Positions 1,765 through 63,780 of a stretch of 64,000 nucleotides of DNA are shown here, piece after piece. Position 1 is the stretch's first letter. Each line of letters starts with the position of its first letter. Under the pieces are notes generated by a model, which was not told where the DNA came from, did not search any database, and was given only the letters and a program-made list of their open reading frames with translations. The position numbers were made by a program, and so were the translations under genes. Source of the DNA: a virus (lineage: Duplodnaviria > Caudoviricetes); the IMG/VR virus record IMGVR_UViG_3300020045_009164, positions 1 through 64,000 of that record; one strand, 5' to 3'.

Positions 1765-2289
1765 TCAGTGCAAATCAATATACTGCTTTGCACTGGAACA
1801 GTCATCTGAAGGATAGAAACCTATACACTGCTCAGCAGCAAAACGAGCGCAGGCAGCGTCTAAAAGAGTATCAAAATTACCTATATGCTTAAGCTTCTTA
1901 TCTACAGTAATACTTGCATTCCACTTTGATGTTTTAGCAATAAATTTAACGCCTGTAACTCTGTGTTTGTTTTTTCTGAAAATAGTACGATTTCTAGATT
2001 GCTCTTGTGTGGTTGTCACCCTCAAATTACTATATCTATTATCATTTCTAACCCTATTTATGTGATCCACAGAGTATTTTGGCAAGTAACCATCCATATA
2101 TAGAATGGCTAATCTATGAGCCATACAATCCCCTCCCTGGTAGCTAATCTGAACATAGCCTCCAGCACTACTCCAACCAGCAGCCTCCCCAACTTTACTG
2201 CTACAATTACGGAAAGGCTCTATTCTAACAAATACTCCAGTATTAGGATCGTAACTGAATAACTCCTTCAATCTTTCTTGTGTTAGCAT
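1765..2289 (-). CDS. HNH homing endonuclease with AP2-like C-terminal domain
   Basis: AHRL...VDHINRVRNDNRYSNLR (HNH_3 pattern), then VTGV..W.A.I...KHIGNF (AP2-like). Confidence 0.9.
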   Translation of the reverse strand: MLTQERLKELFSYDPNTGVFVRIEPFRNCSSKVGEAAGWSSAGGYVQISYQGGDCMAHRLAILYMDGYLPKYSVDHINRVRNDNRYSNLRVTTTQEQSRNRTIFRKNKHRVTGVKFIAKTSKWNASITVDKKLKHIGNFDTLLDAACARFAAEQCIGFYPSDDCSSAKQYIDLH

Positions 2290-2438
2290 TTCTTAACCTC
2301 AAAGTCTTTTAAACCTTTAGCTACAAGATCATCTAGCACTTCAACCATAGACTTCTCTTCTTTAGCAGCAAGAAGCCTGAGGTTTTTTCTTGTACGCCGC
2401 CATATCCTAATGTTTGTGTACTCTGTCTCGTTTTTCAT
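2283..2438 (-). CDS. ribbon-helix-helix (CopG/Arc-like) DNA-binding protein, 51 aa
   Basis: MKNETEYTNIRIWRRTRKNLRLLAAKEEKSMVEVLDDLVAKGLKDFEVKKC; its stop overlaps the HNH start; TTGATT-17-TAATAT promoter ends 6 nt before the ATG. Confidence 0.75.
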   Translation of the reverse strand: MKNETEYTNIRIWRRTRKNLRLLAAKEEKSMVEVLDDLVAKGLKDFEVKKC

Positions 2439-2509
2439 GTTAACATATTACAACAAGGCTTAGTACAAATCAAGAAATTAATTAGATATAATTAAAAGGA
2501 GGCCCTAAA

Positions 2510-2608
2510 ATGGTTGTTTTGTCCCCAATGTACAGCAAGCCAAAAAGATCCTTTCGAGTTTTGAAGGGATTGTTTTTGATTCTCATCTGGGTTTCAATTT
2601 CGATTTGA
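2510..2608 (+). CDS. 32 aa basic/hydrophobic peptide, copy 2
   Basis: MVVLSPMYSKPKRSFRVLKGLFLILIWVSISI; AAGGAGG RBS. Confidence 0.7.
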   Translation: MVVLSPMYSKPKRSFRVLKGLFLILIWVSISI

Positions 2609-2821
2609 AATCTGATTTGGATTTAAAATTTAGCGAAGGTTAACTTAAGTATTTAACTAAATTCTTAAATACCTCCATAGAAAAAATTTTATACCACCCC
2701 CAAAATCAGCTCCATTATGAAAATTGTTGTTAGGAAACGCCAAAACAGCCCCTAGAATCAACGACAGACAACATCCATACCAACCTATACCTTGCACCAT
2801 GATCGTGCAACAGGAGGCCAA

Positions 2822-2968
2822 ATGAAGACCTTAAAGCAAGCGATCCACGCCTATTTAAACCGCAAGACAGAAACTCCAACCATAATCAGGAAGGTGACAA
2901 GATTCAGCAAGCCACCTCACCCCGAAAGATTACGCACCCATAGAAACCAAGGATACCCACTCATTTAA
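2822..2968 (+). CDS. small basic hypothetical protein (48 aa)
   Basis: AGGAGG RBS; MKTLKQAIHAYLNRK... Confidence 0.5.
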   Translation: MKTLKQAIHAYLNRKTETPTIIRKVTRFSKPPHPERLRTHRNQGYPLI

Positions 2969-3380
2969 CTATCTGCCTTAGCCTGTCATTCCAATCTGGT
3001 GGTGTTACCCAGTTAATACCATCAGATTTTCTAATCTGGAAATTATACTGGATCAACTTCAGAAAGAACTGTCCCTTCTTGAGCGGCGATATTCCGTTGT
3101 CTTCACAGTAGTCTAAATAAGACAGCCAAACTTGCGCCCGATTCACTTTAGTTTCTATTTGGGTGATAAATTGGTGGCTGTTACCCTCACTAGCTTCCCT
3201 CACGCCTTTCTCCACCTTTGCTGCTAGAGCAAATGCTCTTTCAGCAACAGAAAGGGCCAAAGAAGCTGATTTAGTGTTCGTTGCTTCCTTAGCTGCCTTC
3301 AAATATTTCTTCCCCAACTCCGAAGCATCAGCAATTACTCCATCGAGGCTCGGATCTAGCTCTAACAAATTATTTTCCAT
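2961..3380 (-). CDS. protein with a winged-helix domain resembling the primase-helicase C-terminus
   Basis: RAQVWLSYLDYCEDNGISPLKKGQFFLKL...IRKSDG aligns by eye to primase RADMWKRFQEFCVTGGYGDWKKGDFFADL...IKKSDG. Start chosen by a TAAGGA RBS. Confidence 0.7.
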   Translation of the reverse strand: MENNLLELDPSLDGVIADASELGKKYLKAAKEATNTKSASLALSVAERAFALAAKVEKGVREASEGNSHQFITQIETKVNRAQVWLSYLDYCEDNGISPLKKGQFFLKLIQYNFQIRKSDGINWVTPPDWNDRLRQIVK

Positions 3381-3407
3381 ATAATATTCCTTAGTTATGT
3401 AACCCAA

Positions 3408-3822
3408 AAACCTAACAGTGCACTGTCAGGGCATTTCTCAGGGCACTTTTTATTTTTGTAGATCCTTGCTGGGCTTGGCCTTGCTGTCAGAACAGGGTCT
3501 TTTTTAAAAGATTTTTTGAGAGACCCCTATAGAGATGAATGCATAGAGAGGCCGCTCCATTTTGAGAATCATTATCGCTATTATGCTTCATCAGATTGTT
3601 ACCAGTATACCCTCTACAAAATATACACCTATTAGAAAATCCTTTAAAAAAGACCCTGTTTCTTAACTAAGAGCATAATATCTTTAAAAATATTATGCCC
3701 TAAATTCTGCCAAATTATACCACTCTAGGTTTTGCCAAATTCTGCCCTGATACATTGTGGTACCCCATTTTGAGCAAATGGGTCATTTTGACCCATAGTG
3801 ACCAGAAATTGACCACCCAAAA
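3408..3822. other. candidate replication origin
   Basis: 415 bp non-coding gap downstream of the primase, with inverted repeats (3491-3515/3636-3660; TCAGGGCA x2 versus TGCCCTGA/TGCCCTA) and short direct repeats (AAATTCTGCC x2, CCATTTTGAG x2). Confidence 0.45.
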
Positions 3823-6513
3823 TTAACCCCACTTGGCCCTAAACACCTTCCAAACTCCATCCGATTTCTTAATCGGACCGATCTTTGAGTTCTTGTCCAG
3901 GTCAGCAAAGAAGTCCCCCTTCTTCCAATCCCCGTAGCCTCCTGTGACACAAAACTCTTGAAACCTTTTCCACATATCAGCCCTGATAATATAATCTCTG
4001 ACACTGCCAGTAACGACAACATTTTCGTCAAGAAAGAGAGCTACTGGATCTGTACTTAACTCCCATCTCTTGTACAACTCCAAACTCAAACTGTCTTCCA
4101 ATCCATACTGAAAATACAGCTTGACTCCCTCAATAGCCCAAGCCAAGACCCCAGGAAGTTCGTCAGCAATGATCATATCGGCCAAACCAACAATCTCCTC
4201 CATGGAGGCATGTTTGGTGAACTGTACCATTGAGTGGCCAAACCTTCGCTCAGTCTCCGGGCCTACTGGATGTAGAGAGAAGTTGTCATTCATAGAAATG
4301 ACAAAACTACAAGTGGACTTGAAATTAAAAGGAACACCATAAGCGAATCTAGCATTGATAACTCCACCACCCGTTATCTCTTTCAGTCCGGTTATATCAA
4401 TTTTCTTGGCTCCTCTTCCCGTCCTTACCTCAGAGCTAAAGTTAACCCTGGACTGAGCAATGTGCGCCCTGTAATACTCCTGATTGAGTTGATCTAAAGA
4501 TACGGAGGTGATTCTATTGGAGGGAAGCATGGCCATCATGATGTCACTGATAGTGCCTTTACCAGCTCCACCCATGCCTTTCATCACCATAACCTTTTGG
4601 GCCTTATTCAAATACCCACTTATAGCAAGGCCAAACAGCTGCTGGAAAAGGACCGGGTTCTCAATGTTGGCGAGGATCTTATCAAACAAAGGAGTATTCA
4701 TGCTGAAATCAGGTTTGATGCCCATTTTAAATCGACACATAAGATCCTTATTATACTCAACTTTCTCCACTTTACCATCCTTGATAAGGTAAAATCCATC
4801 AGAGCAAGGGAAGCCAAACGCCTCCTCCCACTGCAAGACATTAGCATCGCTGTCATTAACAACCATTCTTACCAGTGAGCTGTAATGCCCATCTGTTTTA
4901 CAAAGCTTCACGTGGTTATAATGACTTCGCAGTTTCTTTCTGATGACTCTTTGGGTGTGTTCTTGCCAGATGGTGCCGCCCTCCCAAGCGTAGACACTGC
5001 CGCCAAAAGTCTTGCAGTCACCAGTGTTACGGACGTAATCCTCCATAACGTCCCCGTGGCTAGCTTCTGGGCTTACTGCGACTCCATACATGCACTCAGG
5101 GTCAATCGGCTCACCAGTGGCATCCTCAGGCTTTTTATCAACAACCCTGGTCTTAATGTCCTTTCTGACTGCCACTACGCTTATGTCCAGCTGCTTAGCA
5201 GCTGACTTGGCAATCTTTTCTAACTGGATGTCATTCATATCAGAATTGGCTACGTGAATTCCAATCCAATCTTCAATTACATCCTGTTCAGAGTTTTCAA
5301 GCCAGTCGTTAAGATCCTCATAAGTCCATTTCAGTGCATATTTAACTCCACCATGATTAAAACTATGCAGGAAGGGCTCAGTGTCCTGGCCCATGATCTT
5401 GCCGACATTTCTGTCTGGCTCACAATTGACAGGGTCGTTGAATTTATCTTTGCCAATCCATTTGTCAGGGTTGGACAGGATCTCGCTGACTCTTACTTCT
5501 GTGCCGTCTGTGCGTCTTAAAACTACACTAGATAACAGTATGGAATTACTGAGGCTTTGTGCTGATTTTTTAGCCTCTTTTTCTGACATTCCAGACTCAG
5601 TGTTCTTTTCAACTCGCTCTAAAATCCATGCACTTTTAGCAGCTACTACATCAGGAGCTGTTTCTTTGCTCCGCTTGTATATTCCCCACTCTTTCTCAAA
5701 ATCAACCGTCAGTTCTCGTAAAATACCAACGGCCAGTTCAGCATCTATGACGCCTCCAGGTTGGTAATTGCAAGTCCTGTCAATATGCCTGTAATATTCA
5801 GCGGGGCCTTCCACTAAGGCATCTGAAGAGTATACTACTCTCTCTGGACTACCGACAGCTGGGTCGATAAGACTTTCAGATGTAATGCTTCCGGCTTTGC
5901 TAACTTTGTAACCTCTGTAGTCAGGGGAGGTCAGCCAGCAGAATTTGTGGATAAGCTTAATAAGCTCACTGGAGCATTTCTTGACGGGGAGGAAGACGTG
6001 GAGGCCGTTGCCTCGTTTTCCGTTGATTTCGACACTGGAGCTAGTTGAAGGTCTGAGCCAGCGGCAAATACGCGCTCTCTGGCCGCTAGTTTCACCGATC
6101 AGAGCATCATGTAGGATAACATCCAGCTCCTTCAAAAAACGCTGTCTGAGGGCGTCTGGGGCGTCAGAATCGAAATCCAAATAGAGTAAAGATATGTTGC
6201 CAGAGTTACACCAGTTGAAAAATTCAAGAGTCCGGGCTATGGTGCCTTGCTCTCGCTTGGAATTTTCCGCTGTGGTCAGGTTGAATTCCTCGCCGGTCTT
6301 GCCACAGACCCCTAGAAGTAGGCACTTTTCTGGAGATTTGGCGAGGTTGTCAAGGTATTCTGAGACATTATCAAAGGTGAGTTCGATGTTTTTCGCTATG
6401 CCTGAATATATAGCGGGTGCTGAAATGATATTCACTTCACCATCAGGAGAGATTTGATATTTTTTCGCAATCGTGCCCTGCCGTGAGGTGAGTTCAGTGA
6501 GTCTGATTGTCAT
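3823..6513 (-). CDS. P4/D5-type primase-helicase (SF3 helicase)
   Basis: 896 aa; N-terminal primase-like motifs (YLDFD, GLHVF); Walker A MKGMGGAGKGT; LKEITGG; C-terminal wHTH. Confidence 0.85.
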   Translation of the reverse strand: MTIRLTELTSRQGTIAKKYQISPDGEVNIISAPAIYSGIAKNIELTFDNVSEYLDNLAKSPEKCLLLGVCGKTGEEFNLTTAENSKREQGTIARTLEFFNWCNSGNISLLYLDFDSDAPDALRQRFLKELDVILHDALIGETSGQRARICRWLRPSTSSSVEINGKRGNGLHVFLPVKKCSSELIKLIHKFCWLTSPDYRGYKVSKAGSITSESLIDPAVGSPERVVYSSDALVEGPAEYYRHIDRTCNYQPGGVIDAELAVGILRELTVDFEKEWGIYKRSKETAPDVVAAKSAWILERVEKNTESGMSEKEAKKSAQSLSNSILLSSVVLRRTDGTEVRVSEILSNPDKWIGKDKFNDPVNCEPDRNVGKIMGQDTEPFLHSFNHGGVKYALKWTYEDLNDWLENSEQDVIEDWIGIHVANSDMNDIQLEKIAKSAAKQLDISVVAVRKDIKTRVVDKKPEDATGEPIDPECMYGVAVSPEASHGDVMEDYVRNTGDCKTFGGSVYAWEGGTIWQEHTQRVIRKKLRSHYNHVKLCKTDGHYSSLVRMVVNDSDANVLQWEEAFGFPCSDGFYLIKDGKVEKVEYNKDLMCRFKMGIKPDFSMNTPLFDKILANIENPVLFQQLFGLAISGYLNKAQKVMVMKGMGGAGKGTISDIMMAMLPSNRITSVSLDQLNQEYYRAHIAQSRVNFSSEVRTGRGAKKIDITGLKEITGGGVINARFAYGVPFNFKSTCSFVISMNDNFSLHPVGPETERRFGHSMVQFTKHASMEEIVGLADMIIADELPGVLAWAIEGVKLYFQYGLEDSLSLELYKRWELSTDPVALFLDENVVVTGSVRDYIIRADMWKRFQEFCVTGGYGDWKKGDFFADLDKNSKIGPIKKSDGVWKVFRAKWG

Positions 6514-6704
6514 ACAGCCCCCTTGATCAAACTCCTAAAATCTACTTCATCACCTATGGCATTGATAATCTTATTAATATCACAAACTCGGAGGACTTCT
6601 GGGTGTTGGCAAATCTTCCAGGTATAACTCTTGGAGAAGCCCAGCTTCTTGCTGAGTTTCTCATAGCTGAGACCTTTTTCTTCTCTATATCTTCCTAAGT
6701 CCAT
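6510..6704 (-). CDS. Cro/CI-type HTH regulator, translationally coupled to the primase
   Basis: LGRYREEKGLSYEKLSKKLGFSKSYTWKI; 4 bp overlap with the primase start. Confidence 0.8.
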   Translation of the reverse strand: MDLGRYREEKGLSYEKLSKKLGFSKSYTWKICQHPEVLRVCDINKIINAIGDEVDFRSLIKGAV

Positions 6705-6824
6705 CTTCCCTCCAAAAATCGTTTTTAATTAGGAACAAAGTATTAGTTGACGGTTTCAATAATATCGTTTTTAATTACGACCATCAACTGAAAAGTAAAT
6801 TAAATTTGATTGGAGGTCGTACTA
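6705..6824. promoter_or_regulatory. divergent control region between HTH-primase and HNH/early genes
   Basis: ATCGTTTTTAATTA direct repeat (6718-6731, 6764-6777) and AGTTGACGGT/ACCATCAACT inverted repeat (6745-6754/6780-6789). Confidence 0.6.
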
Positions 6825-7343
6825 ATGCCACAGAGTATCACTCAGGATAGATTGAAAGAGTTGCTGGATTATGATGCAGAGACTGGAATTTTTACTTGGA
6901 AATCTAGCAGAAGTGGAACAAATGGAGCGGGATCAGAAGCAGGGGCAGTAGATAGCAAAGGTTATAGGCAGATAGCTATAAACGGCGTTCTCAGCTTAGC
7001 CCATAGGTTGGTATTCCTCTACATAGATGGTTATATGCCAGAAAACTCCGTTGACCACATAAACCGCAACAAGCTAGACAACAGAAGAGTAAATTTAAGA
7101 GAAGTGTCAAAACAATGCCAGATGAGAAACAGAGATGTTCGGAGAGACAACTCATCTAGTGTTACAGGGGTAGTATGGCATAAGCGCAGCTCAAGTTGGC
7201 GTGCCCGCATTGGTGTAAATGGGAAGCACAGGAATTTGGGTCACTTTACAGATCTCTTGGAAGCTGCCTACCACCGCTATGCAGGAGAGCAATGCTTAGG
7301 ATTTCCTGATTGTGACATAAATCCAGTGCTAAGAAATACATAG
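6825..7343 (+). CDS. HNH homing endonuclease with AP2-like domain (C-terminus probably frameshifted; alternative stop 7360)
   Basis: AHRL...VDHINRNKLDNRRVNLR; paralog of 1765-2289. The shifted frame after 7322 reads SSAKKYID, matching SSAKQYID in the paralog. Confidence 0.9.
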   Translation: MPQSITQDRLKELLDYDAETGIFTWKSSRSGTNGAGSEAGAVDSKGYRQIAINGVLSLAHRLVFLYIDGYMPENSVDHINRNKLDNRRVNLREVSKQCQMRNRDVRRDNSSSVTGVVWHKRSSSWRARIGVNGKHRNLGHFTDLLEAAYHRYAGEQCLGFPDCDINPVLRNT

Positions 7344-7375
7344 ATGCTAACAAGTCCTAATTAGAGGTAATTAGA

Positions 7376-7669: not shown

Positions 7670-7742
7670 ATTTGAACGATAATAGGTTGGTCTATACATT
7701 GGTATGGGTCAGCCTTAAAAATGATTCTAGGAGGCATACACA

Positions 7743-8013: not shown

Positions 8014-8022
8014 GAGACAAAT

Positions 8023-27714: not shown

Positions 27715-27719
27715 GAAAG

Positions 27720-27756
27720 TAGCCTAAAGATATTAATACTTCTTTAGGCTATTTTT
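27720..27756 (+). terminator. intrinsic terminator
   Basis: TAGCCTAAAGA/TCTTTAGGCTA plus TTTTT. Confidence 0.85.
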
Positions 27757-27812: not shown

Positions 27813-27965
27813 ATGAGAACAAGATTAGTAGTAGAGTTAGAGTGCAAAAACTGCGGCAATCTCTGGGTTCCTATGGTCGATAACCCAAAGAAATGTCCAC
27901 AATGTCAAAGTAGAAAATGGAATGAGGAGAAAGATGAGCGCGACAAAAAACGAGGTAGGAAATAG
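27813..27965 (+). CDS. 50 aa zinc-ribbon protein
   Basis: MRTRLVVELECKNCGNLWVPMVDNPKKCPQCQSRKW...; GGAGG RBS; overlaps the HNH start. Confidence 0.75.
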   Translation: MRTRLVVELECKNCGNLWVPMVDNPKKCPQCQSRKWNEEKDERDKKRGRK

Positions 27966-28809
27966 GTATGGTAAATTAGTTGTGGTTGAGAGAGTGGAAA
28001 GTGATAGTAATTACGCCAAGTGGAGGTGCGAGTGTGACTGTGGTGGGGAGTACGTAACTACAGGTAACAGGTTAAGGACTGGAGATAATAATGTTAAATC
28101 TTGTTTAATGTGTAAAGCTGAGGATATAACAGGAAAAAGATTTAATAAGCTGCTGGTTATATGTAAAGTGGCCAGGAGAATGAAAGGTAAGAGCAGACAT
28201 AGAAAGTGGTTGTGTCTATGTAACTGTGGTGGAACTACTATAACAACAAGGCAGAATTTACGGGGTGGCCACACCAACTCCTGTGGTTGTTATGCTAAAA
28301 AGCGAGCGGCTGAAGCTAAAACATCTCACGGGATGTCAAGATTTTCCTTATTTCAAGTGTGGAGAAACATGAAATCCAGATGTGAAAATCCAGATAACCC
28401 CTGGTATGAGTTGTATTCTGCTAAAGGTCGTGAGGTTTGTGATAAGTGGAAACATAACCCTAAGGAATTTATAGATTGGGCCAATGTTAATGGCTGGAGC
28501 AGTAATTTGCAATTAGATAGGAGAGATAATTCACAAGGTTACTCCCCAGAAAACTGTAGGTTTGTAACACCGCAAGTGAATACACATAATTCAGATAGGC
28601 AGAGGAGAAACAAAACAGGGTATACTGGAGTTTGGTATGACAAAAGATATAGTACTTACATTAGTTACATAACAGGAATAGACGTACCCTTGTCTAGGAA
28701 GAGGAAACATCTAGGTAGTTTCTTCACTGCTGAACAAGCAGTTACCACTAGAAATAACTACATCAAGGAACATAACTTACCTCACCAAATACAGGAGATA
28801 AAAGGATGA
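27934..28809 (+). CDS. HNH-type homing endonuclease with N-terminal zinc-ribbon repeats and AP2-like C-terminus
   Basis: Two G..(F/Y).(K/R)L.V...W.C.C.CG units; SCGC; LQLDRRDNSQGYSPENCRF; KTGYTGV...HLGSF. Confidence 0.85.
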   Translation: MSATKNEVGNRYGKLVVVERVESDSNYAKWRCECDCGGEYVTTGNRLRTGDNNVKSCLMCKAEDITGKRFNKLLVICKVARRMKGKSRHRKWLCLCNCGGTTITTRQNLRGGHTNSCGCYAKKRAAEAKTSHGMSRFSLFQVWRNMKSRCENPDNPWYELYSAKGREVCDKWKHNPKEFIDWANVNGWSSNLQLDRRDNSQGYSPENCRFVTPQVNTHNSDRQRRNKTGYTGVWYDKRYSTYISYITGIDVPLSRKRKHLGSFFTAEQAVTTRNNYIKEHNLPHQIQEIKG

Positions 28810-36840: not shown

Positions 36841-36869
36841 TTGACAAAGTATTAATCTTAATGTATATG
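36841..36869 (+). promoter_or_regulatory. sigma70-type promoter
   Basis: TTGACA-17-TATATG. Confidence 0.7.
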
Positions 36870-36874
36870 TTTTC

Positions 36875-36980
36875 CTATCTCTGTGGCAAAAGACTCTCAT
36901 CGGGCTGCGGTGTAGTAAGTCCTGCAAACCTGGAGCGGATAGTCCGTTCCAGGTTTTCTTTTATGTAAGAGCAGAGATGG
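36875..36980 (+). ncRNA. candidate ~106 nt structured RNA upstream of RHH-tnpB
   Basis: Closing stem CTATCTCTG/CAGAGATGG; internal hairpins including the 14 bp AAACCTGGAGCGGA/TCCGTTCCAGGTTT; starts 5 nt after the -10 box. Confidence 0.5.
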
Positions 36981-37022
36981 ATTAACAAAGTAGTTGTAAT
37001 AAGAGTGCAATAGGAGTATGAT

Positions 37023-37193
37023 ATGCGCATGAGAAAAAAGAATACTTATTTTTCAATTATACAGTTGAAGCTACTGGAGGGGTTAGCGGAGGTCACTGGT
37101 ATCACAGTTGCTGAACACATACGCAGGGCTGTTGACCTGTATTTAAAGGAACAGAATGTATCTATCTCACAAAATAGAACTAAGACCTACTAA
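37023..37193 (+). CDS. ribbon-helix-helix DNA-binding protein, 56 aa
   Basis: MRMRKKNTYFSIIQLKLLEGLAEVTGITVAEHIRRAVDLYL...; overlaps the tnpB start by 38 nt. Confidence 0.8.
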   Translation: MRMRKKNTYFSIIQLKLLEGLAEVTGITVAEHIRRAVDLYLKEQNVSISQNRTKTY

Positions 37194-38253
37194 AGAACAA
37201 GAAGAATTTTTGAAGAAATCTTGTGGAGTAAAAAGATTTGTTTGGAACGCTTGCTTGAATGAATGGAATAAAGCCTACAAACTAGGCTTCAAGCCAGATG
37301 AAGATTATATCAGGTTCTACTTAAAGGTTTTGCGAGATAAACACCCGTGGATAGGTGAAGTTTCAAGCAAAGTTTACTATTCTTGTATAGCAGATCTAAA
37401 GGGTGCTTTTGTAAAGATGTTTAAGAAGCAAGCAAAGTACCCAAGGTTTAAGAAGAAAGGTCAAAGAGATTCTTTTACTATAAGCCAAAAAGAAGTGTTC
37501 AATGTTAACGGGAGGAGGCTGAAACTTCCTCGCTTAAATAAGACAATACTTATGAGGGAGTGTACACGGTTTAAGGGTGAGGTAAGATCATGTACGGTGG
37601 CTAGCATTGGTGGGAAGTGGTTTGTGTCAGTGTTGGTTAAGTTGAGTAGTAACCCATTCCTGAATAAATTTCCTGGCGAAAACCAAGTTGGGATTGATTT
37701 AGGTATAAAAGAAATGGCCGTCCTGTCAAATGGGGAGGTTTTTAAAGCTAACCAACCACTGAAAAATGAGTTAAAAAGACTGGCCAAACTACAGAGGTCT
37801 TTGGCTAAGAAAGAGAAAGGGAGTAACAGATGGGAGAGTAATAAGAAAAAGATTTCTAAGTTGTATAGGCGAGTGTCTAATAAGAGGTCTGCTGTCATCA
37901 ATGAATTTACAGACTACGTGACAAAGACCTTCAATAGGATTGTGATTGAGGATCTTAATATTGCTGGTATGATTAAGAATCATAATTTGTCCAGAGCATT
38001 GAGCGATGTGTCTTTATCAGAAATAAGAAGACAATTTTATTACAAGTCTGTTGCTAGACATGGTGAGTTGGTAATAGCCAATAGATTTTTTCCAAGCTCT
38101 AAAATATGTAGCAAGTGCGGCAGTATTGATAAAGATTTAACTCTAAATGATAGAGTTTATAAGTGCAGTTGTGGTTTAGTGATGGATCGTGACCTCAACG
38201 CTGCTATAAACCTGTTAAACTACAGTCCTGGACAGATTCAAGCCGGACTCTAA
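37156..38253 (+). CDS. tnpB: TnpB RNA-guided endonuclease (IS607/IS605-type), RuvC triad intact
   Basis: HKIELRPT N-terminus; GIDLG, VIEDL and DRDLNAA; CSKC/CSC zinc finger; no tnpA nearby. Confidence 0.92.
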   Translation: MYLSHKIELRPTKEQEEFLKKSCGVKRFVWNACLNEWNKAYKLGFKPDEDYIRFYLKVLRDKHPWIGEVSSKVYYSCIADLKGAFVKMFKKQAKYPRFKKKGQRDSFTISQKEVFNVNGRRLKLPRLNKTILMRECTRFKGEVRSCTVASIGGKWFVSVLVKLSSNPFLNKFPGENQVGIDLGIKEMAVLSNGEVFKANQPLKNELKRLAKLQRSLAKKEKGSNRWESNKKKISKLYRRVSNKRSAVINEFTDYVTKTFNRIVIEDLNIAGMIKNHNLSRALSDVSLSEIRRQFYYKSVARHGELVIANRFFPSSKICSKCGSIDKDLTLNDRVYKCSCGLVMDRDLNAAINLLNYSPGQIQAGL

Positions 38254-42422: not shown

Positions 42423-42444
42423 TTTACTGTGAGAAATCAATTAA

Positions 42445-42942
42445 TTAGATGTAATCAAGAAGGTCTGAGGCTCTATTAATCCAGCCAGTTATAAAACCTC
42501 GCTGGCTAGGATCTCTAGAGATGAGTTTAGAGTATCTTCTCATACGGTTGGAAACAATCTTGCCAGCTATGTTGTAAGGGTTACAACTCTCCAGCTTGGC
42601 CAGAGTGACTGGACCAATAACCCCGTCAACACCAATGTTGTCTCCCTGGGAGTTGATAGCCTTCTGGAGCCAGATAGCTCCTGAACCTACGCCGCAGTTG
42701 ACTGAGGAGTCAAATACAGCGATGGCTATGGGTGTAGGCATGAGGTGGCATTTATTCTTCAGCCAGTAGTCTCTAATGTAGATTTCATCAGCCTGTTCAA
42801 GAGTTAGGTTGGCTATATCCACATCAGGATACTGTTTCTTACATATGCCAAAACGGGTGAGACCTCCACGATCATTGACATCGTAACTGGTCCCACCTTC
42901 GTGGTCGTACATGAATTTAAATGCTAGGGTTTTTGAGTCCAC
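42445..42942 (-). CDS. endolysin, glycoside hydrolase family 108 with PG-binding domain
   Basis: HEGG..D..DRGGLTRFGI; FDSSVNCG; VDGVIGPVT; GWINRA. Confidence 0.9.
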   Translation of the reverse strand: MDSKTLAFKFMYDHEGGTSYDVNDRGGLTRFGICKKQYPDVDIANLTLEQADEIYIRDYWLKNKCHLMPTPIAIAVFDSSVNCGVGSGAIWLQKAINSQGDNIGVDGVIGPVTLAKLESCNPYNIAGKIVSNRMRRYSKLISRDPSQRGFITGWINRASDLLDYI

Positions 42943-56560: not shown

Positions 56561-56563
56561 CTA

Positions 56564-57345: not shown

Positions 57346-57446
57346 TGTGTGTCTCCTTTTAAAAAGTGGTTGTTAAGTGTTACACTCTAGTGTATGGTTG
57401 TAACTATAAAGTAGTTCACTAAAAATATCAATAGGAGACTTAAGCC

Positions 57447-57620
57447 ATGAGTATTAAAAAGGGCAACCGTATCATCCCGGTAAATTTACCGATCTATCAC
57501 CAAAAAAAGCTTGAGATGGTGTGTCAGAAGTTGGGAGTCAGCAAGTCAGAACTCATCAAGAGATTGATTGAGGGGTATTCACTGTTCCAAGAACCTACGA
57601 AGGAGGATAAAAATGGCTAA
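57447..57620 (+). CDS. ribbon-helix-helix DNA-binding protein, 57 aa
   Basis: MSIKKGNRIIPVNLPIYHQKKLEMVCQKLGVSKSELIKRLIE...; AGGAG RBS. Confidence 0.75.
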   Translation: MSIKKGNRIIPVNLPIYHQKKLEMVCQKLGVSKSELIKRLIEGYSLFQEPTKEDKNG

Positions 57621-57882
57621 ATTAAAAGATGTGAGGAAGACGGACTGGTACAGAAACCTACCAAGAAAGGTAAAAGCCTCAGTAAGGCAGTTTCCACCTG
57701 AGGCTGTTGTCATGATAGTTAAAAGTGGAGTCATAGCCCATGTTGAGGCTTATGACTGCAAGGGTAGAATACAGTTGTTAATAGACCAAGCTGACAACAT
57801 GGGTATAGAGGTAGCTCAATTAGAACCTTACCTAGTTAACGGGTATGATCTGGAAGAACTGGAACTTATCTGTGAGGTGTGA
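57613..57882 (+). CDS. hypothetical protein (89 aa), coupled to the RHH gene
   Basis: AGGAGG RBS; 8 nt overlap. Confidence 0.75.
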   Translation: MAKLKDVRKTDWYRNLPRKVKASVRQFPPEAVVMIVKSGVIAHVEAYDCKGRIQLLIDQADNMGIEVAQLEPYLVNGYDLEELELICEV

Positions 57883-57887
57883 AGTAA

Positions 57888-57910
57888 TTGGCTCCCCAAA
57901 AGGGAGCCAA
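57888..57910. terminator. hairpin between convergent genes
   Basis: TTGGCTCCC/GGGAGCCAA. Confidence 0.7.
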
Positions 57911-57914
57911 CTAT

Positions 57915-58787
57915 TTAAAGTTGGAGAAGGCATTGAGCGTGTGACGGATGGCATTTTACGCATAGAAGGATGTGGCTGTCAGATGATATAGCTTCCTTAC
58001 CAAAGATAGAAACAGGCTTTGTATGGTGAAGCTGTAGACTTTTAGATGGTGTGTCTGAACCACATTTTTCACAAAATGTGTAGTTGAACGCGTCCATCTG
58101 TAAAGCTAGCAGAGCTTTTCTTACCTGTCGCTGACACCTTCTGGCTTCTTTGGTTTCGGAGTCTGGTACATATTGAGAGGAGCGTGGGTCGATTTGTACG
58201 TGAGGTTTGAACCCAAAGGTAGGACATAACTCCTTACACTCTTCACTGCAATAAAAATTCAACTCCCCTTTAGATTTACCAGTTAGCGCTTGTATCCTCT
58301 TATTAACCTGTCTACTTGTAGGGGTGAATCTTTCGTTACAATATTTACAGACAACAGTTATTACTCCGTCAACAAACTCAGGCTCGTCTGTAACTGGCAA
58401 CTCCTTTATATACTTCTCTGATTTAGACGGTTTTCCAGATATGTCCCTCAGTTTCTCATTTAATATAGCTCTGTTGGCAGCACGGTAGTTCTTTGCATAT
58501 TCCAGTTTAGGCTCTTTTTTATCTATATACCTAGCCTTGTGGTAAACAGATCTCTTGTCCTTATTCTTTACATAAGTCTTCTTTGCTATCTCCCTAGCTC
58601 TGTCTGGGTTTTCTTTAACCCATTTAGCAGACGCAGCTCTCTGCTTATCGCGGTTCTTTAACCCCCATTCATATTGGGCTATCTTAGCACACTCTTTACA
58701 CATAGCCCTCCTTGATTTCTTCTTAGAATTCAACCACCCGAAATCTTCGTCTTCCTTCTCAGCCCCACACTTAGTACAAATTTTCAT
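57915..58787 (-). CDS. HNH endonuclease with zinc-finger N-terminus
   Basis: CTKC..CKEC; C-terminal CEKCG...LQLHH...LLCVKCH. Confidence 0.85.
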   Translation of the reverse strand: MKICTKCGAEKEDEDFGWLNSKKKSRRAMCKECAKIAQYEWGLKNRDKQRAASAKWVKENPDRAREIAKKTYVKNKDKRSVYHKARYIDKKEPKLEYAKNYRAANRAILNEKLRDISGKPSKSEKYIKELPVTDEPEFVDGVITVVCKYCNERFTPTSRQVNKRIQALTGKSKGELNFYCSEECKELCPTFGFKPHVQIDPRSSQYVPDSETKEARRCQRQVRKALLALQMDAFNYTFCEKCGSDTPSKSLQLHHTKPVSIFGKEAISSDSHILLCVKCHPSHAQCLLQL

Positions 58788-58891
58788 AAGATACCTCTTG
58801 CTTAAATTTAGTAAGTAATGCTATAGTGATCATGCTAGTAAAAGCATAAGCCAAAAGTAGCATTAACTCAACTAAAAACTTAGGAGATATT

Positions 58892-59080
58892 ATGAAATTT
58901 TTAGAGTTTAAAGAAAAGACTGGGTACTCTTACAGGGAGATATCTGAAGGGACAGGCATACCAGGGAGATCTTTACAGAGATTGTTTACAGAGAAGCCAG
59001 GAAGTATAAGTCTGAAGACAGCAAAGAAGATAGTGGATTGGAGTAGGGGTGAAGTTTCTTTCTGCGATCTATGTGAGTAG
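58892..59080 (+). CDS. Cro-like HTH protein, divergent from the HNH gene
   Basis: KEKTGYSYREISEGTGIPGRSLQRL; similar size and ending (GEVSF.DL) to 6510-6704 (DEVDF.SL). Confidence 0.75.
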   Translation: MKFLEFKEKTGYSYREISEGTGIPGRSLQRLFTEKPGSISLKTAKKIVDWSRGEVSFCDLCE

Positions 59081-59085
59081 AAACA

Positions 59086-59114
59086 ACTGGCTCCCTAAAC
59101 AGCAGGGAGCCAGT
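59086..59114. terminator. terminator after the tail tube gene (probably bidirectional)
   Basis: ACTGGCTCCCT/AGGGAGCCAGT; TTGTTT follows on the minus strand. Confidence 0.75.
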
Positions 59115-59124
59115 ATTCTATATC

Positions 59125-60327: not shown

Positions 60328-60346
60328 ACTAAGCTCCTTTTAAATT

Positions 60347-60760
60347 TTATACATTGAAGTAGTCAATATCAAACGCCAAATAGTTCATCACACCATCGAA
60401 CCCTGGCTTACCTTTGTTGTCGTATGGTAGCACACTGTAGAAATTAATACCACTTAAATTCTTGTATCCGAAATAACTATAGAGCATATCTGAGTAATCA
60501 GTAAAAAGCTTCTCACCCTTACCAGCCCTAGCGTAGTGATTTAGTATTAATGCTCCAGCCACTTCCAAATCTGCTCTGGCATGAATACCCATCGTCTGTG
60601 ATTTCCAGGAAATCTCCACCCCAACAAAAGGATTGACAGAGTGTTCTACATCAGTCCTCCACGCTTTTGGGTAGTTAACTTCCATGGTTGGGTAGTTAGC
60701 ATCGTGGAAACTCTTCACAAGAGTCACTAGCTTAACCCTGGTTGATTCATATGGATTCAT
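60347..60760 (-). CDS. tail terminator-like protein
   Basis: Synteny just before the tube gene; size. Confidence 0.6.
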   Translation of the reverse strand: MNPYESTRVKLVTLVKSFHDANYPTMEVNYPKAWRTDVEHSVNPFVGVEISWKSQTMGIHARADLEVAGALILNHYARAGKGEKLFTDYSDMLYSYFGYKNLSGINFYSVLPYDNKGKPGFDGVMNYLAFDIDYFNV

Positions 60761-61326
60761 GATTTAGCCCTGAAAGCGTGAAACTCTGGAGAGTCGTAGA
60801 TTATGGTCTTGTTGGCCAGTGACTGCATCTGAGCAGCAGCTTGCGCCATAGCGTGAGCGCCCTCTTTATTCCCATCCCGTAGCTCCCCTGCCTCAAGACT
60901 CTCAACAATCTCAGAGTCTTCAAACCTGTTGTATATGGTTACCTCCTGTAACCACCCTGAGGACTTTTTTATGTGAGCGGTAAGGTTCTTTACGATGTTG
61001 GGGTTTTCCTTCCTGGCTATATAGACAGCAGCCATATTACCACGAATAAAGACATCTTGAATGTTTTGCTTGTGTGGAAAGTACTCCACTCCACCCTTGT
61101 TACCGCCATACGCTCCAGCTCTAACGGCCATATTAGCCACAAAGTTACCAGTGTACTGAGGAGCGTTCAGGAGCAGATCATCAAAGGCCACAGCGATCAT
61201 ACCAGCCATGCACTCAGCAACTTCTTTTCTGATGTTCATCTGTTTGGAGAGCATCTTGGCAGTCTTCCTACCTCCACTCACACCCGAGATGTCAACGCCG
61301 TCTATCTTAATGGATATATCCATCAT
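60757..61326 (-). CDS. tail completion or neck protein
   Basis: Synteny; APQYTGNFVAN motif. Confidence 0.6.
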   Translation of the reverse strand: MMDISIKIDGVDISGVSGGRKTAKMLSKQMNIRKEVAECMAGMIAVAFDDLLLNAPQYTGNFVANMAVRAGAYGGNKGGVEYFPHKQNIQDVFIRGNMAAVYIARKENPNIVKNLTAHIKKSSGWLQEVTIYNRFEDSEIVESLEAGELRDGNKEGAHAMAQAAAQMQSLANKTIIYDSPEFHAFRAKS

Positions 61327-62162
61327 AATATTTTCCTCCCCTGAACAGTCCAGAAGGTTCCGTTATCCTCAAAAGACTCTATCCGGTATTTCCCTATGGT
61401 ATCGCCAACCTTGACTGTGGTCACAACTGATTTTAGAAAGGAGATGGATCTATCGCCAGCCTCCAGCTTCACATATCCCAAGGCTTCGTGTTGGAAGTCA
61501 AAGACCACGTATTCTACGAAGCAAGCCACTCCAGTAACAGCAGCAGGAGGAGTATGAGTATCAGTAGCTGGGTCATATGTTGTACCAAGGGCCTGGAAGG
61601 TGTAGGACTGGATGGGACTCTGTAGTTCCACAGCCTCAACAGCCCCAAAGCCTATGTCGTCAATCCTGGAATCCTCTCTTGCTCTGTAATACTTACTCCC
61701 GCCATAGATTATGCTGCCTTGGGCAATTGTGTAGTAAGAGCTGAAGGTGATCTCGTAGCCACCAAGGTAATCCGACTGTTCCTCCAGTACGTTTCTACGA
61801 ACATAGGAAGGCACCATGTAAGCGTCTGTGGTGCCACCAGTATTTGAAAGCACCTGACCGATGTCTCTGATAGTGTACTGAGTTTCTACCGGCAGGATGG
61901 CGTATTTGGCCCTGATCTCATCACCCTGGAAGAAGTCTGAGGACTTGTGAGAGACAACAAACTTCATTCCACTACTGGTGACTGTCCTTTTGGTGGGGAT
62001 AGTCACAGCAGGGGAAACATCTAGGATTCTTCTGGTTGCAGAAGAAGCTGATCTGGTGCTGTCTGCAAAAGGTAGGATCTGACCATAGAAGAAAGCAGTC
62101 CCGTAGGAGTCAGTGAATAACTGCTCATTGAAATAACTCGCTGCTTCTTTGAGGGTCATCAT
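61323..62162 (-). CDS. head closure or head-tail joining protein
   Basis: Synteny. Confidence 0.55.
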   Translation of the reverse strand: MMTLKEAASYFNEQLFTDSYGTAFFYGQILPFADSTRSASSATRRILDVSPAVTIPTKRTVTSSGMKFVVSHKSSDFFQGDEIRAKYAILPVETQYTIRDIGQVLSNTGGTTDAYMVPSYVRRNVLEEQSDYLGGYEITFSSYYTIAQGSIIYGGSKYYRAREDSRIDDIGFGAVEAVELQSPIQSYTFQALGTTYDPATDTHTPPAAVTGVACFVEYVVFDFQHEALGYVKLEAGDRSISFLKSVVTTVKVGDTIGKYRIESFEDNGTFWTVQGRKIL

Positions 62163-62656
62163 ACGCCTGTCACCGGATCAACAGCAGGTTTCACAGTTGT
62201 CATAAACGGCATTGCTGTGATAGCTGAGGCATTGATGTTCTCTATGCGATATCTAACCTCGTCCAGCTTCTTGGTGATTGCCTCTATGACATCTTGAAAA
62301 GTTGCCTCTGGTGAGAATCTGACGAGAGATGCCTTGCCATCTGCAATGGACTTTGGAGCTTTCATTGACAAACTCGTGGCCACTTCCATGGAAACTGTGT
62401 AAGTAGCGAACATCCTTGTCAGATTGTAGAGTTTCTGTTGTAAAGCAGTTCTCTCTGTCATAGCTTTTATGGCTATGTATCTGGTGTCAAGAGGTCCAGG
62501 CCCAGGTTCTTCTGTGGGTATTGTGATCTCAGCCAGAGCAAGCCCAAGGACGTTGTCGTATATCTCCAGAGCGAGTTCCGTATCCGGGAGTTCCTTTTCA
62601 GAGACACCCAATGTAGTGCGCACCTCTGCATAGCTAGTATATGTAGTTATTGCCAT
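62159..62656 (-). CDS. head-tail adaptor
   Basis: YTSYAEVRTTLGVS N-terminus; synteny. Confidence 0.65.
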   Translation of the reverse strand: MAITTYTSYAEVRTTLGVSEKELPDTELALEIYDNVLGLALAEITIPTEEPGPGPLDTRYIAIKAMTERTALQQKLYNLTRMFATYTVSMEVATSLSMKAPKSIADGKASLVRFSPEATFQDVIEAITKKLDEVRYRIENINASAITAMPFMTTVKPAVDPVTGV

Positions 62657-62934
62657 AGCTTAACCAGACCTACATTCATTTGAGACTCAAGCCAGCCATC
62701 CATGTAGAGTTCAACCGGAGTGGTGGTGTCTACGTGCCTGTATTGGAAGGGATGGTACAGGTTGAACTTGGTAGCTATGTAGAGGAGCTTATCAGGATTA
62801 ATACTTTCTTGTGGGGTTGGTTCTGCTAAAATTTCTGGCTCTTGTGGCATGATTAGTTCTTCCGCGCCAAATGCTTCAGAAATTTCTAATTCTACAGGAG
62901 TCTTGAGTTCTACCTTCTTCTTGGGCCTTGCCAT
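62647..62934 (-). CDS. hypothetical virion-region protein
   Basis: AAGGAG RBS. Confidence 0.7.
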   Translation of the reverse strand: MARPKKKVELKTPVELEISEAFGAEELIMPQEPEILAEPTPQESINPDKLLYIATKFNLYHPFQYRHVDTTTPVELYMDGWLESQMNVGLVKLWQ

Positions 62935-63061
62935 TATGAGTCTCCTTTTATATTAAAGTGTTGTTGTGATTGTAATGTTTTTTGCTTAGGACCGCAATAT
63001 ATTACTTGTAATATGGTATTAGTCGGGGTAAGGTAGTGTAAATACCTAAAGGAGGAATAGT

Positions 63062-63229
63062 ATGCCTAGAAAGAAAACTGATATGCGCCGTAGGACAATG
63101 TTTATCTCAGATGCTATCTGGGAGAGGGTTGAGAAGTTGGCTGTGGTCAAAGGTTCTGGTGTTTCGGATCTTGTTCGTAGAGCTATTGTGGAGTTATTGG
63201 AGAAATTAGAGGTAAAGGAGAGCAGATGA
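63062..63229 (+). CDS. ribbon-helix-helix DNA-binding protein, 55 aa
   Basis: MPRKKTDMRRRTMFISDAIWERVEKLAVVKGSGVSDLVRRAIVELL...; AGGAGG RBS; ATGA overlap with the nuclease. Confidence 0.85.
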   Translation: MPRKKTDMRRRTMFISDAIWERVEKLAVVKGSGVSDLVRRAIVELLEKLEVKESR

Positions 63230-63780
63230 AAATATATGAAGGGTACTTAACAGAAGAGAAACTAGGTGATTTTCTTCAGCTAGTGTTTCCAGAAGGAGAA
63301 TGGATTTATAACAAAGTCATTCCAGGTTCTGGAAGCAAACTGCGACCAGATTACAGAAACGATTATTATATGTTAGTTGTAGAATATGATGGTCCAGGAC
63401 ATTATACAAATGTCAACACTACGCACAGAGATCTAGAAATATACGATGTGTGCTGCAAAAATGGTTACACATTCATATCCATACCATATTTCCTACAAAT
63501 AGATGATTGTCTGTTCAGCGCAGTATTCAAGCCAGCTGGAGCTATATGTCCAGACGGAGTAGAAATGAGTAACTACCCGCAGGGCTTTATACTAGATACC
63601 TGTGTTTTCCCCGCTAGCTACTGTCAGAATGGGTTATTACGATTTTCCCTAGAGATGGACAGGGAGTTTTGGCCATATAAAGATGATATAATGGCCACAC
63701 TTGACCGACACGCTGAGAGGATTGGAGAGACTAGAGTACACTCTCTGATCAGATATGAAAAATTTCTGGAATTACGTTAA
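63226..63780 (+). CDS. PD-(D/E)xK / Vsr-like (DUF559-type) putative homing endonuclease
   Basis: LRPDY...VVEYDGPGHY. Confidence 0.7.
   Translation: MKIYEGYLTEEKLGDFLQLVFPEGEWIYNKVIPGSGSKLRPDYRNDYYMLVVEYDGPGHYTNVNTTHRDLEIYDVCCKNGYTFISIPYFLQIDDCLFSAVFKPAGAICPDGVEMSNYPQGFILDTCVFPASYCQNGLLRFSLEMDREFWPYKDDIMATLDRHAERIGETRVHSLIRYEKFLELR

Follow-up and report, generated by a model that had tools for sequence, protein, structure and literature searches.

The window analysed here comprises the first 64,000 nt of a siphophage contig 74.7 kb long. Eight free-standing nuclease genes lie on this contig and make up 8% of the genome, in which around half of the 131 called genes encode fewer than 100 aa. 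All ORFs named in a preliminary description of this DNA, seven small ones and their neighbours, are present in the window, and five of the seven small proteins are shorter than 60 aa (51, 56, 55, 50 and 57 aa). Codon scores were positive for all seven and a GGAG-type RBS precedes six. The overlapping stop and start codons reported earlier were also confirmed, spanning 7 nt for RHH1/HNH1, 38 nt for RHH2/TnpB, 4 nt for RHH3/g110 and 32 nt for Znr/HNH4. As the RHH and nuclease ORFs overlap by 4-38 nt, each pair forms one transcription unit and is probably translationally coupled.

Three nucleases directly behind small RHH genes

RHH1 (2283..2438, minus strand; 51 aa) encodes a probable ribbon-helix-helix (RHH) protein and its stop overlaps the start of HNH1 (1765..2289, minus strand), a 174-aa HNH_3 homing-type endonuclease (HNH_3, 8.9e-13). 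The fold assignment of RHH1 is weak. Its Pfam match was to Antitox_RHH with an E-value of only 0.07, the AF2 monomer is a helical hairpin, and the Foldseek list holds mostly RHH chains of Arc, CopG, ParG and MazE, none of them significant (E > 1). HNH1 is absent from the relative phage R, which encodes an RHH1 homolog (44-46% identical) overlapping a gene of another HNH family (PHROG_374-type). Members of the RHH1 family stand ahead of genes from two different HNH families, and in L189 one of them precedes a non-nuclease gene. An RHH-like ORF also overlaps an HNH_3 gene in L094, in the structural-gene context of a different phage.

The RHH1-HNH1 cassette is flanked on the opposite strand by two copies of a 32-aa ORF, copy A (1607..1705, plus strand) and copy B (2510..2608, plus strand). 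Both belong to a direct repeat of ~125 nt that spans the RBS and the ORF, with differences that are mostly synonymous in frame. Between RHH1 and copy B lies the palindrome TTAATTA-N4-TAATTAA (2478..2495). Six such sites were observed against 0.44 expected and, because this is one of the six, it probably serves as an operator for a regulator acting phage-wide, not for RHH1.

RHH2 (37023..37193, plus strand; 56 aa) matched the Pfam families RHH_3 (23.9 bits) and RHH_1 (22.0 bits), both above the cut-off. Its final 38 nt are shared with tnpB (37156..38253, plus strand), which encodes a 365-aa RNA-guided nuclease of the IS607-associated clade without TnpA and is absent from R. TnpB is complete, with matches to OrfB_IS605, Cas12f1-like_TNB and HTH_OrfB_IS605, and its RuvC residues D181, E265 and D346 and its zinc finger are invariant in A3. 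The closest homolog of RHH2 is the RHH gene of L198 (75% aa identity; 78% nt identity over 37010-37155), which leads an HTH_3 gene followed by an HNH_3-type gene. From the tnpB ATG on, nucleotide identity drops to 27%; homology stops exactly there. Among TnpB relatives, the IS607 serine-recombinase TnpA overlaps the tnpB start in ~13 of 68.

RHH3 (63062..63229, plus strand; 55 aa) is an Arc-like RHH protein with a Pfam score of 19.2, just below the cut-off of 20.5, and a PHROG Arc-like repressor match of 1.6e-4. It is paralogous to RHH2 (blastp E 6e-5), the two leading the Vsr-like gene and tnpB, respectively. Its gene shares an ATGA overlap with g110 (63226..63780, plus strand), which encodes a protein of 184 aa with a Vsr-like (PD-(D/E)xK-type) nuclease fold whose family is rare. 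A sequence-family search with g110 gave no match. The best fold matches of its N-terminal domain (model pLDDT 67) were Vsr (1vsr) and the EDxHD homing endonuclease I-Bth0305I (3r3p), with prob 0.99-1.0 and E 0.02. Conserved acidic and histidine residues lie on the matching strand region, but g110 differs from both enzymes in its extra C-terminal helical half and in belonging to no sequence family. Six homologs were found, one labelled very-short-patch-repair endonuclease by JGI, and D42, E53, D55, H59 and D69 are invariant. The RHH3-g110 pair is kept in the window phage, R and L180; since it is conserved at one site in these three related phages, g110 does not look recently mobile. In L191, an RHH3 homolog overlaps an Endonuclease_7 gene (8e-20). 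The stretch GGTAGTGTAAATACC (63032..63046) is identical in the window and R and is a candidate RHH3 operator; it overlaps the -35 element of a promoter predicted to read leftward.

Other small DNA-binding genes

A fourth RHH gene, RHH7 (57447..57620, plus strand; 57 aa), is CopG-like and divergent from the tail-chaperone/tape-measure operon; its domain evidence is weak (PHROG CopG-like, 1e-4). It is followed by g100 (57613..57882, plus strand), an 89-aa gene with no family match that is particular to the window phage and absent from R. The RHH7 ortholog of R (53% identical) stands alone and converges on an ortholog of HNH6. In the window, HNH6 (57915..58787, minus strand) encodes an HNH endonuclease of 290 aa whose N-terminal region is zinc-ribbon/Endo VII-like and whose HNH match is weak (19.3 bits); its ortholog in R, at the same site, is 48% identical and 406 aa long.

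Two HTH genes had been described as similar to each other and as divergent partners of HNH genes. Comparison with R led us to reject both pairings. HTH5 (6510..6704, minus strand; 64 aa, Cro-like, domain score near the cut-off) is the first gene of a primase operon and has an ATGA overlap with an 896-aa primase-like gene; in R, which lacks HNH5, a 70% identical ortholog stands ahead of the primase. HNH5 (6825..7343, plus strand) encodes a 172-aa HNH_3 endonuclease, 45-46% identical to HNH1, and is a single-gene insertion at the divergent promoter region. HTH6 (58892..59080, plus strand; 62 aa) has a weak HTH (HTH_3 E 0.005) and is lacking from R, which keeps HNH6. HTH5 and HTH6 did not match each other by BLAST. 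A role for either as a nuclease partner is not supported, placing both outside the RHH design. After HTH6 lies a two-way terminator hairpin (59086..59114), the stem of which resembles that of the hairpin after g100 (about 57888-57910).

Znr (27813..27965, plus strand) encodes a 50-aa C4 zinc-ribbon protein with a clear domain match. It overlaps the start of HNH4 (27934..28809, plus strand), a 291-aa endonuclease inserted just 5' of DNA polymerase I that has no Pfam match but belongs with PHROG_374 (HNH, 1e-73). A terminator hairpin (27716..27755, plus strand) lies ahead of this unit and is followed by an extended -10 (TGCTATAAT). Both genes are missing from R at the corresponding site, and an HNH4 paralog at 68409-69284 has no Znr. 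In L159, a Znr homolog (49% identical) overlaps an HNH_3 gene; in L195, the zinc ribbon and an HNH_3-type HNH form one fused protein; in L192/L193, Znr homologs sit ahead of an anti-repressor gene. Small zinc-ribbon proteins beside phage HNH endonucleases were described in 2013, with their role, regulator or mini specificity subunit, left open (Xu and Gupta 2013, PMC3592412). The fusion in L195 and this known adjacency disfavour the earlier reading of the zinc ribbon as a regulator, and the small protein more likely assists the HNH enzyme as a DNA-binding accessory.

Frequency of the pairing

A tiny DNA-binding gene had been proposed for every free-standing nuclease. This was too broad: three HNH genes, HNH5, g116 (68409-69284) and g127 (72954-73586), stand without a partner, and a search for a DNA-binding neighbour at the latter two, which lie beyond the window, found none. 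On inspection g128 is an ordinary neighbour gene. An RHH gene lies immediately 5' of a nuclease gene in three of four cases (P = 4e-4 in a label shuffle of 4 RHH genes and 8 nucleases among 131 genes, scoring RHH directly upstream of nuclease), with the reservation that the shuffle was run post hoc and its null takes no account of accessory genes gathering at variable sites. The excess of RHH genes upstream of nucleases seen within the genome did not extend to nuclease relatives: small ORFs upstream of HNH_3 relatives gave RHH/HTH family matches in 0/38 and none of 68 TnpB relatives carried an RHH. Judged from these relatives, RHH pairing appears rare within the HNH_3 and TnpB families. The notion of a small RHH gene with an interchangeable nuclease stood up better: counting the window and its relatives, homologous RHH genes precede TnpB, HNH_3, PHROG_374-type HNH, Vsr-like and Endonuclease VII genes. 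The promoter-like upstream regions did not hold, consensus scans giving sites no more frequent than in shuffled sequence. The boundary hairpins are ordinary terminators, and the candidate operators of the RHH proteins are guesses.

Discussion

We put at about 55% the probability that a subset of the phage's nucleases is transcribed and translated behind a 51-57 aa RHH gene of the Arc/CopG type that represses its own unit. Arc has 53 aa and CopG 45 aa; the phage RHH proteins are of similar size and consist of the RHH core only. By analogy with Arc, we infer that an RHH dimer would bind repeats at the promoter of the unit and repress transcription of its own gene and the nuclease gene. Because of this proposed repression, nuclease dose would be low after a brief early pulse, as experiments showed for Arc at IS605 tnpB promoters. 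The burst on entry suggested earlier is likewise hypothetical. The promoter regions at which RHH3 and RHH7 would act also serve divergent structural operons, which the two proteins may control too. Comparison between phages shows the RHH gene as a separate module, placed by recombination before unrelated nucleases.

The alternative that survives best, which we consider unlikely but deserving of weight, is that the phage's own resident regulators, for instance of divergent late operons, are what the RHH genes encode, and that mobile nucleases land or survive behind them. A small promoter-proximal gene would tolerate insertion while supplying transcription and translational coupling, any nuclease control would be a by-product, and the pairing would mark where insertions are tolerated rather than a co-evolved cassette. 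The end of RHH2 homology at the tnpB ATG, with the RHH tail remade from tnpB-overlapping sequence, fits such hitch-hiking, as does TnpA normally occupying that slot in TnpB relatives. So do the RHH1-family member ahead of a non-nuclease, the solo RHH7 of R, and RHH3 and RHH7 keeping their places in R, where they head structural operons and the same spacers contain promoters predicted to read leftward. However, three independent RHH lineages recur with different nuclease families in unrelated phages, RHH1+HNH1 and Znr+HNH4 are present or absent as pairs relative to R, and the RHH+HNH_3 pair of L094 lies in a structural-gene context.

It is very doubtful that the RHH or zinc-ribbon protein serves the nuclease as a detached module for DNA recognition, setting or extending its cleavage site. 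Modularity is known from homing endonucleases (PMC10055350), Xu and Gupta list both adjacent and fused zinc-ribbon proteins and offer such a role (PMC3592412), and the zinc ribbon of L195 is fused to its enzyme. Yet no RHH-nuclease fusion was seen, RNA-guided TnpB requires no protein specificity subunit, and some zinc-ribbon homologs are followed by an anti-repressor gene. Slightly more doubtful still is direct binding and neutralisation of the nuclease by the RHH protein, as in a toxin-antitoxin module. Type II antitoxins are often RHH proteins, such modules are typically overlapping two-gene operons, and archaeal RHH/MazE-TnpB pairs with a rearranged RuvC-III site were read as toxin and RHH antitoxin (Altae-Tran et al. 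2023, PMC10691335). Those pairs likewise have a small RHH gene directly 5' of a non-mobile tnpB, but the phage TnpB has a canonical and intact D-E-D triad, and the phage RHH proteins lack a C-terminal toxin-binding extension. Direct binding also explains poorly how one RHH family precedes structurally unrelated nucleases. Chance adjacency is the least credible reading: many genes here are small, and both HTH cases and g128 proved ordinary neighbours, but the shuffle and the recurrence of the arrangement across unrelated contigs argue against it.

The RHH-nuclease arrangement fits a repressor-plus-nuclease design already known from IS605 transposons since 2026, which weakens its claim to novelty. 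Moon, Zedaveinyte, Wiegand and Sternberg reported that Arc, an RHH protein, binds and represses IS605 tnpB promoters, that arc genes of the same clade also adjoin homing endonuclease genes, and that some elements consist of arc and tnpB alone, with arc often unannotated (bioRxiv 10.64898/2026.09.24.754181). The phage likewise has a tiny RHH gene beside tnpB. Its TnpB differs in belonging to the IS607-associated clade without TnpA. The RHH gene is co-directional and overlaps tnpB, whereas many published cases are divergent, and it lies outside the tnpB-derived DNA, the ATG of tnpB being the point where homology stops. The host element is a lytic-type phage, and members of these RHH families also stand ahead of HNH, Endonuclease VII and Vsr-like genes.

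Phage homing endonucleases such as T4 seg/mob (PMC2988022) and the ICP1 HEGs (PMC10055350) are likewise inserted between conserved essential genes, variably present in relatives and expressed at low levels. These and I-TevI differ in relying on their own DNA-binding domain (I-TevI), RNA structure or late promoters, with no RHH gene. Group 4 zinc-ribbon HNH endonucleases (PMC3592412) resemble Znr-HNH4 in their adjacent, sometimes fused, zinc-ribbon gene but lie by the cos site and terminase; Znr-HNH4 is ahead of DNA polymerase, and the phage's terminase-side HNH paralog has no zinc-ribbon gene. From their layouts, RHH3 and RHH7 may be RHH repressors at compact divergent promoters, as in P22 immI, although the phage RHH genes lead nucleases and have no anti-repressor gene behind them. 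In P22 immI, Arc and Mnt have overlapping divergent promoters, Pant and Pmnt. For RHH families in phages, our sequence comparisons show that related small genes stand before several unrelated nuclease types.

Gene content and nuclease load of the phage genome

The window spans bases 1-64000 of a 74,752-bp IMG/VR viral contig (CheckV 58%), in which our own gene call placed 131 genes, about half of them shorter than 100 aa. The gene set identifies a siphophage; it includes a DUF5906 primase-like protein, an SNF2 helicase, DNA polymerase I, SbcCD, a ligase, a tape-measure protein, a tail tube protein and a terminase. Its relationship to Vibrio and Pseudomonas phages is distant (PolA identity 28%). 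The TnpB region had no megablast match among GenBank phages, single-protein searches for related loci with TnpB, PolA and primase found no close relatives, and neither the Rfam nor the tRNA scan of the window gave a hit.

Nuclease genes number eight and occupy 5,955 nt, or 8% of the genome. HNH1 and HNH5 are HNH_3 paralogs (45-46% identical), HNH4 is a PHROG_374-type HNH and HNH6 a weak HNH. TnpB (37156-38253) is complete, with three Pfam TnpB domains; its RuvC triad (D181, E265, D346) is intact and, together with the zinc-finger CxxC pairs, invariant in our TnpB alignment. The Vsr-like gene g110 (63226-63780) has no Pfam match and no sequence-family membership, and a PDB sequence search gave nothing useful. 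Its top three Foldseek matches, obtained with an alignment-based structure model of pLDDT 67, were 1vsr (Vsr), 3r3p (I-Bth0305I) and 1cw0 (a Vsr-DNA complex), at E 0.02 to 0.1. Residues D42, E53, D55 and H59 of g110 are invariant in 7 homologs. Two HNH genes lie past base 64000: g116 (68409-69284, minus strand, at the portal-terminase junction), a 39% identical paralog of HNH4, and g127 (72954-73586), a NUMOD4-HNH_3-HTH_7 gene. Neither has a DNA-binding neighbour gene, and the HTH gene at 71360-71551 is unconnected with any nuclease.

Identity of the small genes

All ORFs named in the preliminary description were present with positive codon scores, and every one except RHH1 carries a GGAG-type RBS. 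The reported overlaps are real, measuring 7 nt for RHH1/HNH1, 38 nt for RHH2/TnpB, 4 nt for RHH3/g110 and 32 nt for the zinc-ribbon gene Znr with HNH4.

Of the small proteins assigned to the RHH fold, RHH2 (37023-37193, plus strand) exceeds the Pfam cut-off for RHH_3 and RHH_1, a beta-alpha-alpha RHH profile. RHH3 (63062-63229, plus strand) scores 19.2 against a Pfam cut-off of 20.5, with a PHROG match to an Arc-like repressor at 1.6e-4; a member of its family on contig L191 reaches 25.2 bits with the RHH profile. RHH2 and RHH3 are paralogs (E 6e-5), leading TnpB and the Vsr-like gene respectively. Matches of RHH7 (57447-57620, plus strand) are weak (RHH_1 E 0.016; PHROG CopG-like 3e-4), and those of RHH1 (2283-2438, minus strand) weaker still (Pfam E 0.07). 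The Foldseek list for RHH1 holds mostly RHH chains, all weak (E > 1), and in hhalign the RHH1 family showed no relation to the RHH2/3 profile (probability 3%). Because the AF2 monomer of RHH1 is a helical hairpin and not beta-alpha-alpha, it was not taken as proof of the fold. The RHH proteins are 51-57 aa long and filled entirely by the RHH core, with no toxin-binding extension past it. Among the other small genes, the zinc-ribbon assignment of Znr is clear, whilst HTH5 is near the cut-off and HTH6 weak.

Comparison with a related phage

A search for g110 homologs led to a syntenic relative phage, R, also present in IMG/VR, whose proteins are 50-90% identical. HNH1, HNH4, HNH5, TnpB, g116 and g127 are absent from the same sites in R while the flanking genes are conserved, a trait of free-standing homing endonuclease genes; g116 and g127 each represent the insertion of one gene between such flanks. 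The pairs Znr+HNH4, RHH2+TnpB and RHH1+HNH1 are each missing as a pair. By contrast, g110 and HNH6 are conserved in place, and so lack the presence/absence pattern of free-standing homing endonuclease genes. RHH3 and g110 are kept together in R, and the pair also occurs in a more distant relative (L180), in which a 70-aa Lar-like zinc-ribbon gene (L180:3796-4008) lies between the two orthologs.

The HTH genes fared differently. R keeps HTH5 together with the primase gene and lacks HNH5, indicating that HTH5 leads the primase operon and that HNH5 is a lone insertion. HNH6 is also kept in R, where HTH6 and g100, the 89-aa gene behind RHH7, are absent, and RHH7 is kept without a partner gene, converging on the HNH6 ortholog. 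These results remove the divergent pairings HTH5/HNH5 and HTH6/HNH6 proposed in the preliminary description, along with its claim that every free-standing nuclease has a small DNA-binding gene: across the whole genome HNH5, g116 and g127 are partnerless. The RHH cases stay. For the HTH genes, adjacency by itself was misleading, and one related genome was enough to reveal it.

Two intervals differ in content between the phages. One is the spacer that separates the tail chaperone from the tail tube genes, a hot spot of variation (57346-59124 here, L174:3724-5337 in R), holding RHH7, g100, HNH6 (290 aa) and HTH6 here and only RHH7 and a 406-aa HNH6 ortholog in R, their 3' ends overlapping by 77 nt. 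The other is the portal-terminase junction, where the endonuclease-like gene differs per phage: in this genome it is the minus-strand PHROG_374 HNH at 68409-69284, in R a plus-strand Endo VII/HNH-like gene of 373 aa (L174:15306-16427). A 139-aa protein adjoining the primase gene (2961-3380), with a weak Pox_D5/RFX-type winged-helix match, is also kept in R.

Exchange of RHH genes between nucleases

The strongest result of the analysis is the swapping of RHH genes between nucleases. A homolog of RHH1 (44-46% identical) lies at a different site in R, where it overlaps by 41 nt the start of a PHROG_374-type HNH, a family other than that of HNH1. The RHH3 homolog on L191, a 69-kb viral contig of high GC content, overlaps a gene for Endonuclease VII (Pfam 8e-20). 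In L094, the best HNH1/HNH5 relative in IMG/VR, an RHH-like ORF overlaps the start of the nuclease gene in a structural-gene context. The closest database relative of RHH2 (75% protein identity) lies on a 1.7-kb contig (L198), followed by an HTH_3 gene and then by the N-terminus of an HNH_3-type endonuclease. Nucleotide identity between the window and this contig is 78% over 37010-37155, 27% from 37156, the tnpB ATG, and 32% upstream of the RBS. Homology thus ends at the tnpB start codon, which indicates that the RHH gene and tnpB have separate histories. An interchangeable nuclease behind a small DNA-binding gene, as earlier proposed, is supported for RHH families, with HNH types, TnpB, Vsr-like and Endonuclease VII genes as partners, and not for the HTH genes.

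Three of the four RHH genes in the genome are directly upstream of a nuclease (gene-label shuffle P = 4e-4, a post hoc value, the pattern having been seen first, under a null that disregards clustering of accessory genes). No match to an RHH or HTH family came from the 38 small ORFs ahead of HNH_3 relatives, no RHH gene was found beside any of 68 TnpB relatives, and one RHH1-family member is followed by a non-nuclease gene. The RHH-nuclease design is a minority among these nuclease families. The PHROG_374-type HNH behind the RHH1 homolog of R carries the same frameshift split in two independent assemblies (L187:10809-11674, L188:2628-3493), which indicates either decay of the gene or recoding at this site.

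The zinc ribbon ahead of HNH4

Znr and HNH4 lie between an RNase T-like exonuclease gene and DNA polymerase I. One homolog of Znr overlaps an HNH_3 gene (L159) and another is fused to one (L195); in L192/L193 the homologs stand ahead of an anti-repressor gene. Zinc-ribbon proteins encoded beside phage HNH enzymes, or fused to them, have been described, the choice between regulator and specificity subunit being left undecided (Xu and Gupta, PMC3592412). Like the Group 4 zinc-ribbon HNH endonucleases, the Znr-HNH4 family has both a small zinc-ribbon protein beside the HNH and fused forms; unlike them, the Znr-HNH4 pair of this phage does not sit by a cos site and terminase genes. The fusion in L195 favours Znr as an accessory of the HNH enzyme. 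A programmed frameshift from Znr into HNH4 was set aside, as HNH4 starts from an ATG and RBS of its own and the L195 fusion is encoded by one plain ORF.

Promoters, repeats and candidate operators

A conserved candidate operator, GGTAGTGTAAATACC, lies at 63032-63046, and TGTAAT/TGCAAT repeats lie ahead of RHH2 at about 36995-37012. A further candidate, TTGTAATA, was rejected: it occurs just upstream of RHH1, RHH2 and RHH3, yet it is no more frequent in the window than chance predicts. The palindrome TTAATTA-N4-TAATTAA is present in six copies against 0.44 expected (228-245, 271-288, 529-546, 2478-2495, 7357-7374 and 42441-42458), with half-sites at 6715-6737 and 6761-6783. Copies lie mostly in the early control region, the HTH5/HNH5 spacer included. 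Its probable role is that of operator for a global early regulator, which is perhaps HTH5.

A direct repeat of about 125 nt flanks the RHH1-HNH1 cassette (1593-1720 and 2496-2623). It spans exactly an RBS and a plus-strand ORF of 32 aa whose tail is hydrophobic. The two copies differ mainly at synonymous positions, which marks the ORF as a real tiny gene, and the nuclease cassette lies antisense between its copies. Upstream of RHH2 (36841-36980), a near-consensus promoter (TTGACA-17-TATATG) precedes an ORF-free structured stretch ending in a 14-bp hairpin and T run; possible identities are a small RNA, an attenuator and the SbcC operon terminator.

Discussion

The closest experimental case to the RHH cassettes is Arc in IS605 elements, which gave a ChIP-seq signal on the transposon promoter and, in reporters, repressed tnpB expression (bioRxiv 10.64898/2026.09.24.754181). 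The same work notes that arc genes of 50 aa or less are missed by annotation and that some adjoin homing endonucleases. The RHH proteins here are the same size as Arc and core-only, and the TnpB nuclease is intact, as in the Arc-regulated elements. In those elements, however, arc and tnpB (and Y1 tnpA) lie within transposon boundaries, which is not the case for RHH2-TnpB, and no TnpA was found in the genome region around TnpB. An IS607 serine-recombinase TnpA accompanies about 13 of the 68 TnpB relatives, and in three others of the set the TnpA slot holds a 66-aa MerR-HTH stub. This ORF, in two Vibrio phages (L010:1338-1538, L012:1341-1541) and one viral contig (L037:354-554), consists of the N-terminal domain of IS607 TnpA, the recombinase domain being absent, and occupies the slot taken by RHH2 here; its overlap with the tnpB start is 38-41 nt in both Vibrio phages and 4 nt in L037.

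Our preferred reading is that RHH gene and nuclease gene are co-transcribed and that the RHH protein would repress its own unit, to which we give a probability of roughly 0.55. It is favoured by the Arc precedent, the shared size, the core-only form and the occurrence of one RHH family with unrelated nucleases. The main rival, that nuclease genes settle behind resident regulators, draws on the exact breakpoint at the tnpB ATG, on RHH7 standing solo in R, and on the location of RHH3 and RHH7 in spacers shared with structural operons. We consider it unlikely, and under it too the RHH protein would control the nuclease transcript. An antitoxin that directly grips a nuclease toxin, as proposed for archaeal RHH-TnpB pairs (PMC10691335), is argued against by the core-only, Arc-sized proteins and by the service of unrelated nucleases by one RHH family.

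The RHH-TnpB pairing with its function, and arc genes beside homing endonucleases, are already published. New here are three RHH lineages on three nuclease types in one phage, a breakpoint at a gene boundary that demonstrates modular exchange, and Endonuclease VII and Vsr-like genes as additional RHH partners. We tentatively suggest, as a possibility we still regard as rather doubtful, that Arc-like microproteins form a portable "safety-switch" module. Such a module would move by gene-boundary recombination among unrelated selfish phage nucleases (HNH families, Endonuclease VII, Vsr-like and TnpB), would impose one pulse-then-silence expression pattern on them all, and would account for the tolerance of phages towards nucleases that fill about 8% of the genome.

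ORFs of about 50 aa that annotation drops can be control genes of mobile elements. If autorepression is true, the cassettes would yield small repressors, promoters and nucleases in matched sets that could be tested, and the Arc-IS605 result would extend from transposons to phage homing endonucleases. Should the RHH genes repress their cassettes, a single shared solution would explain why phages are unharmed by the many selfish DNA-cutting genes that they carry.
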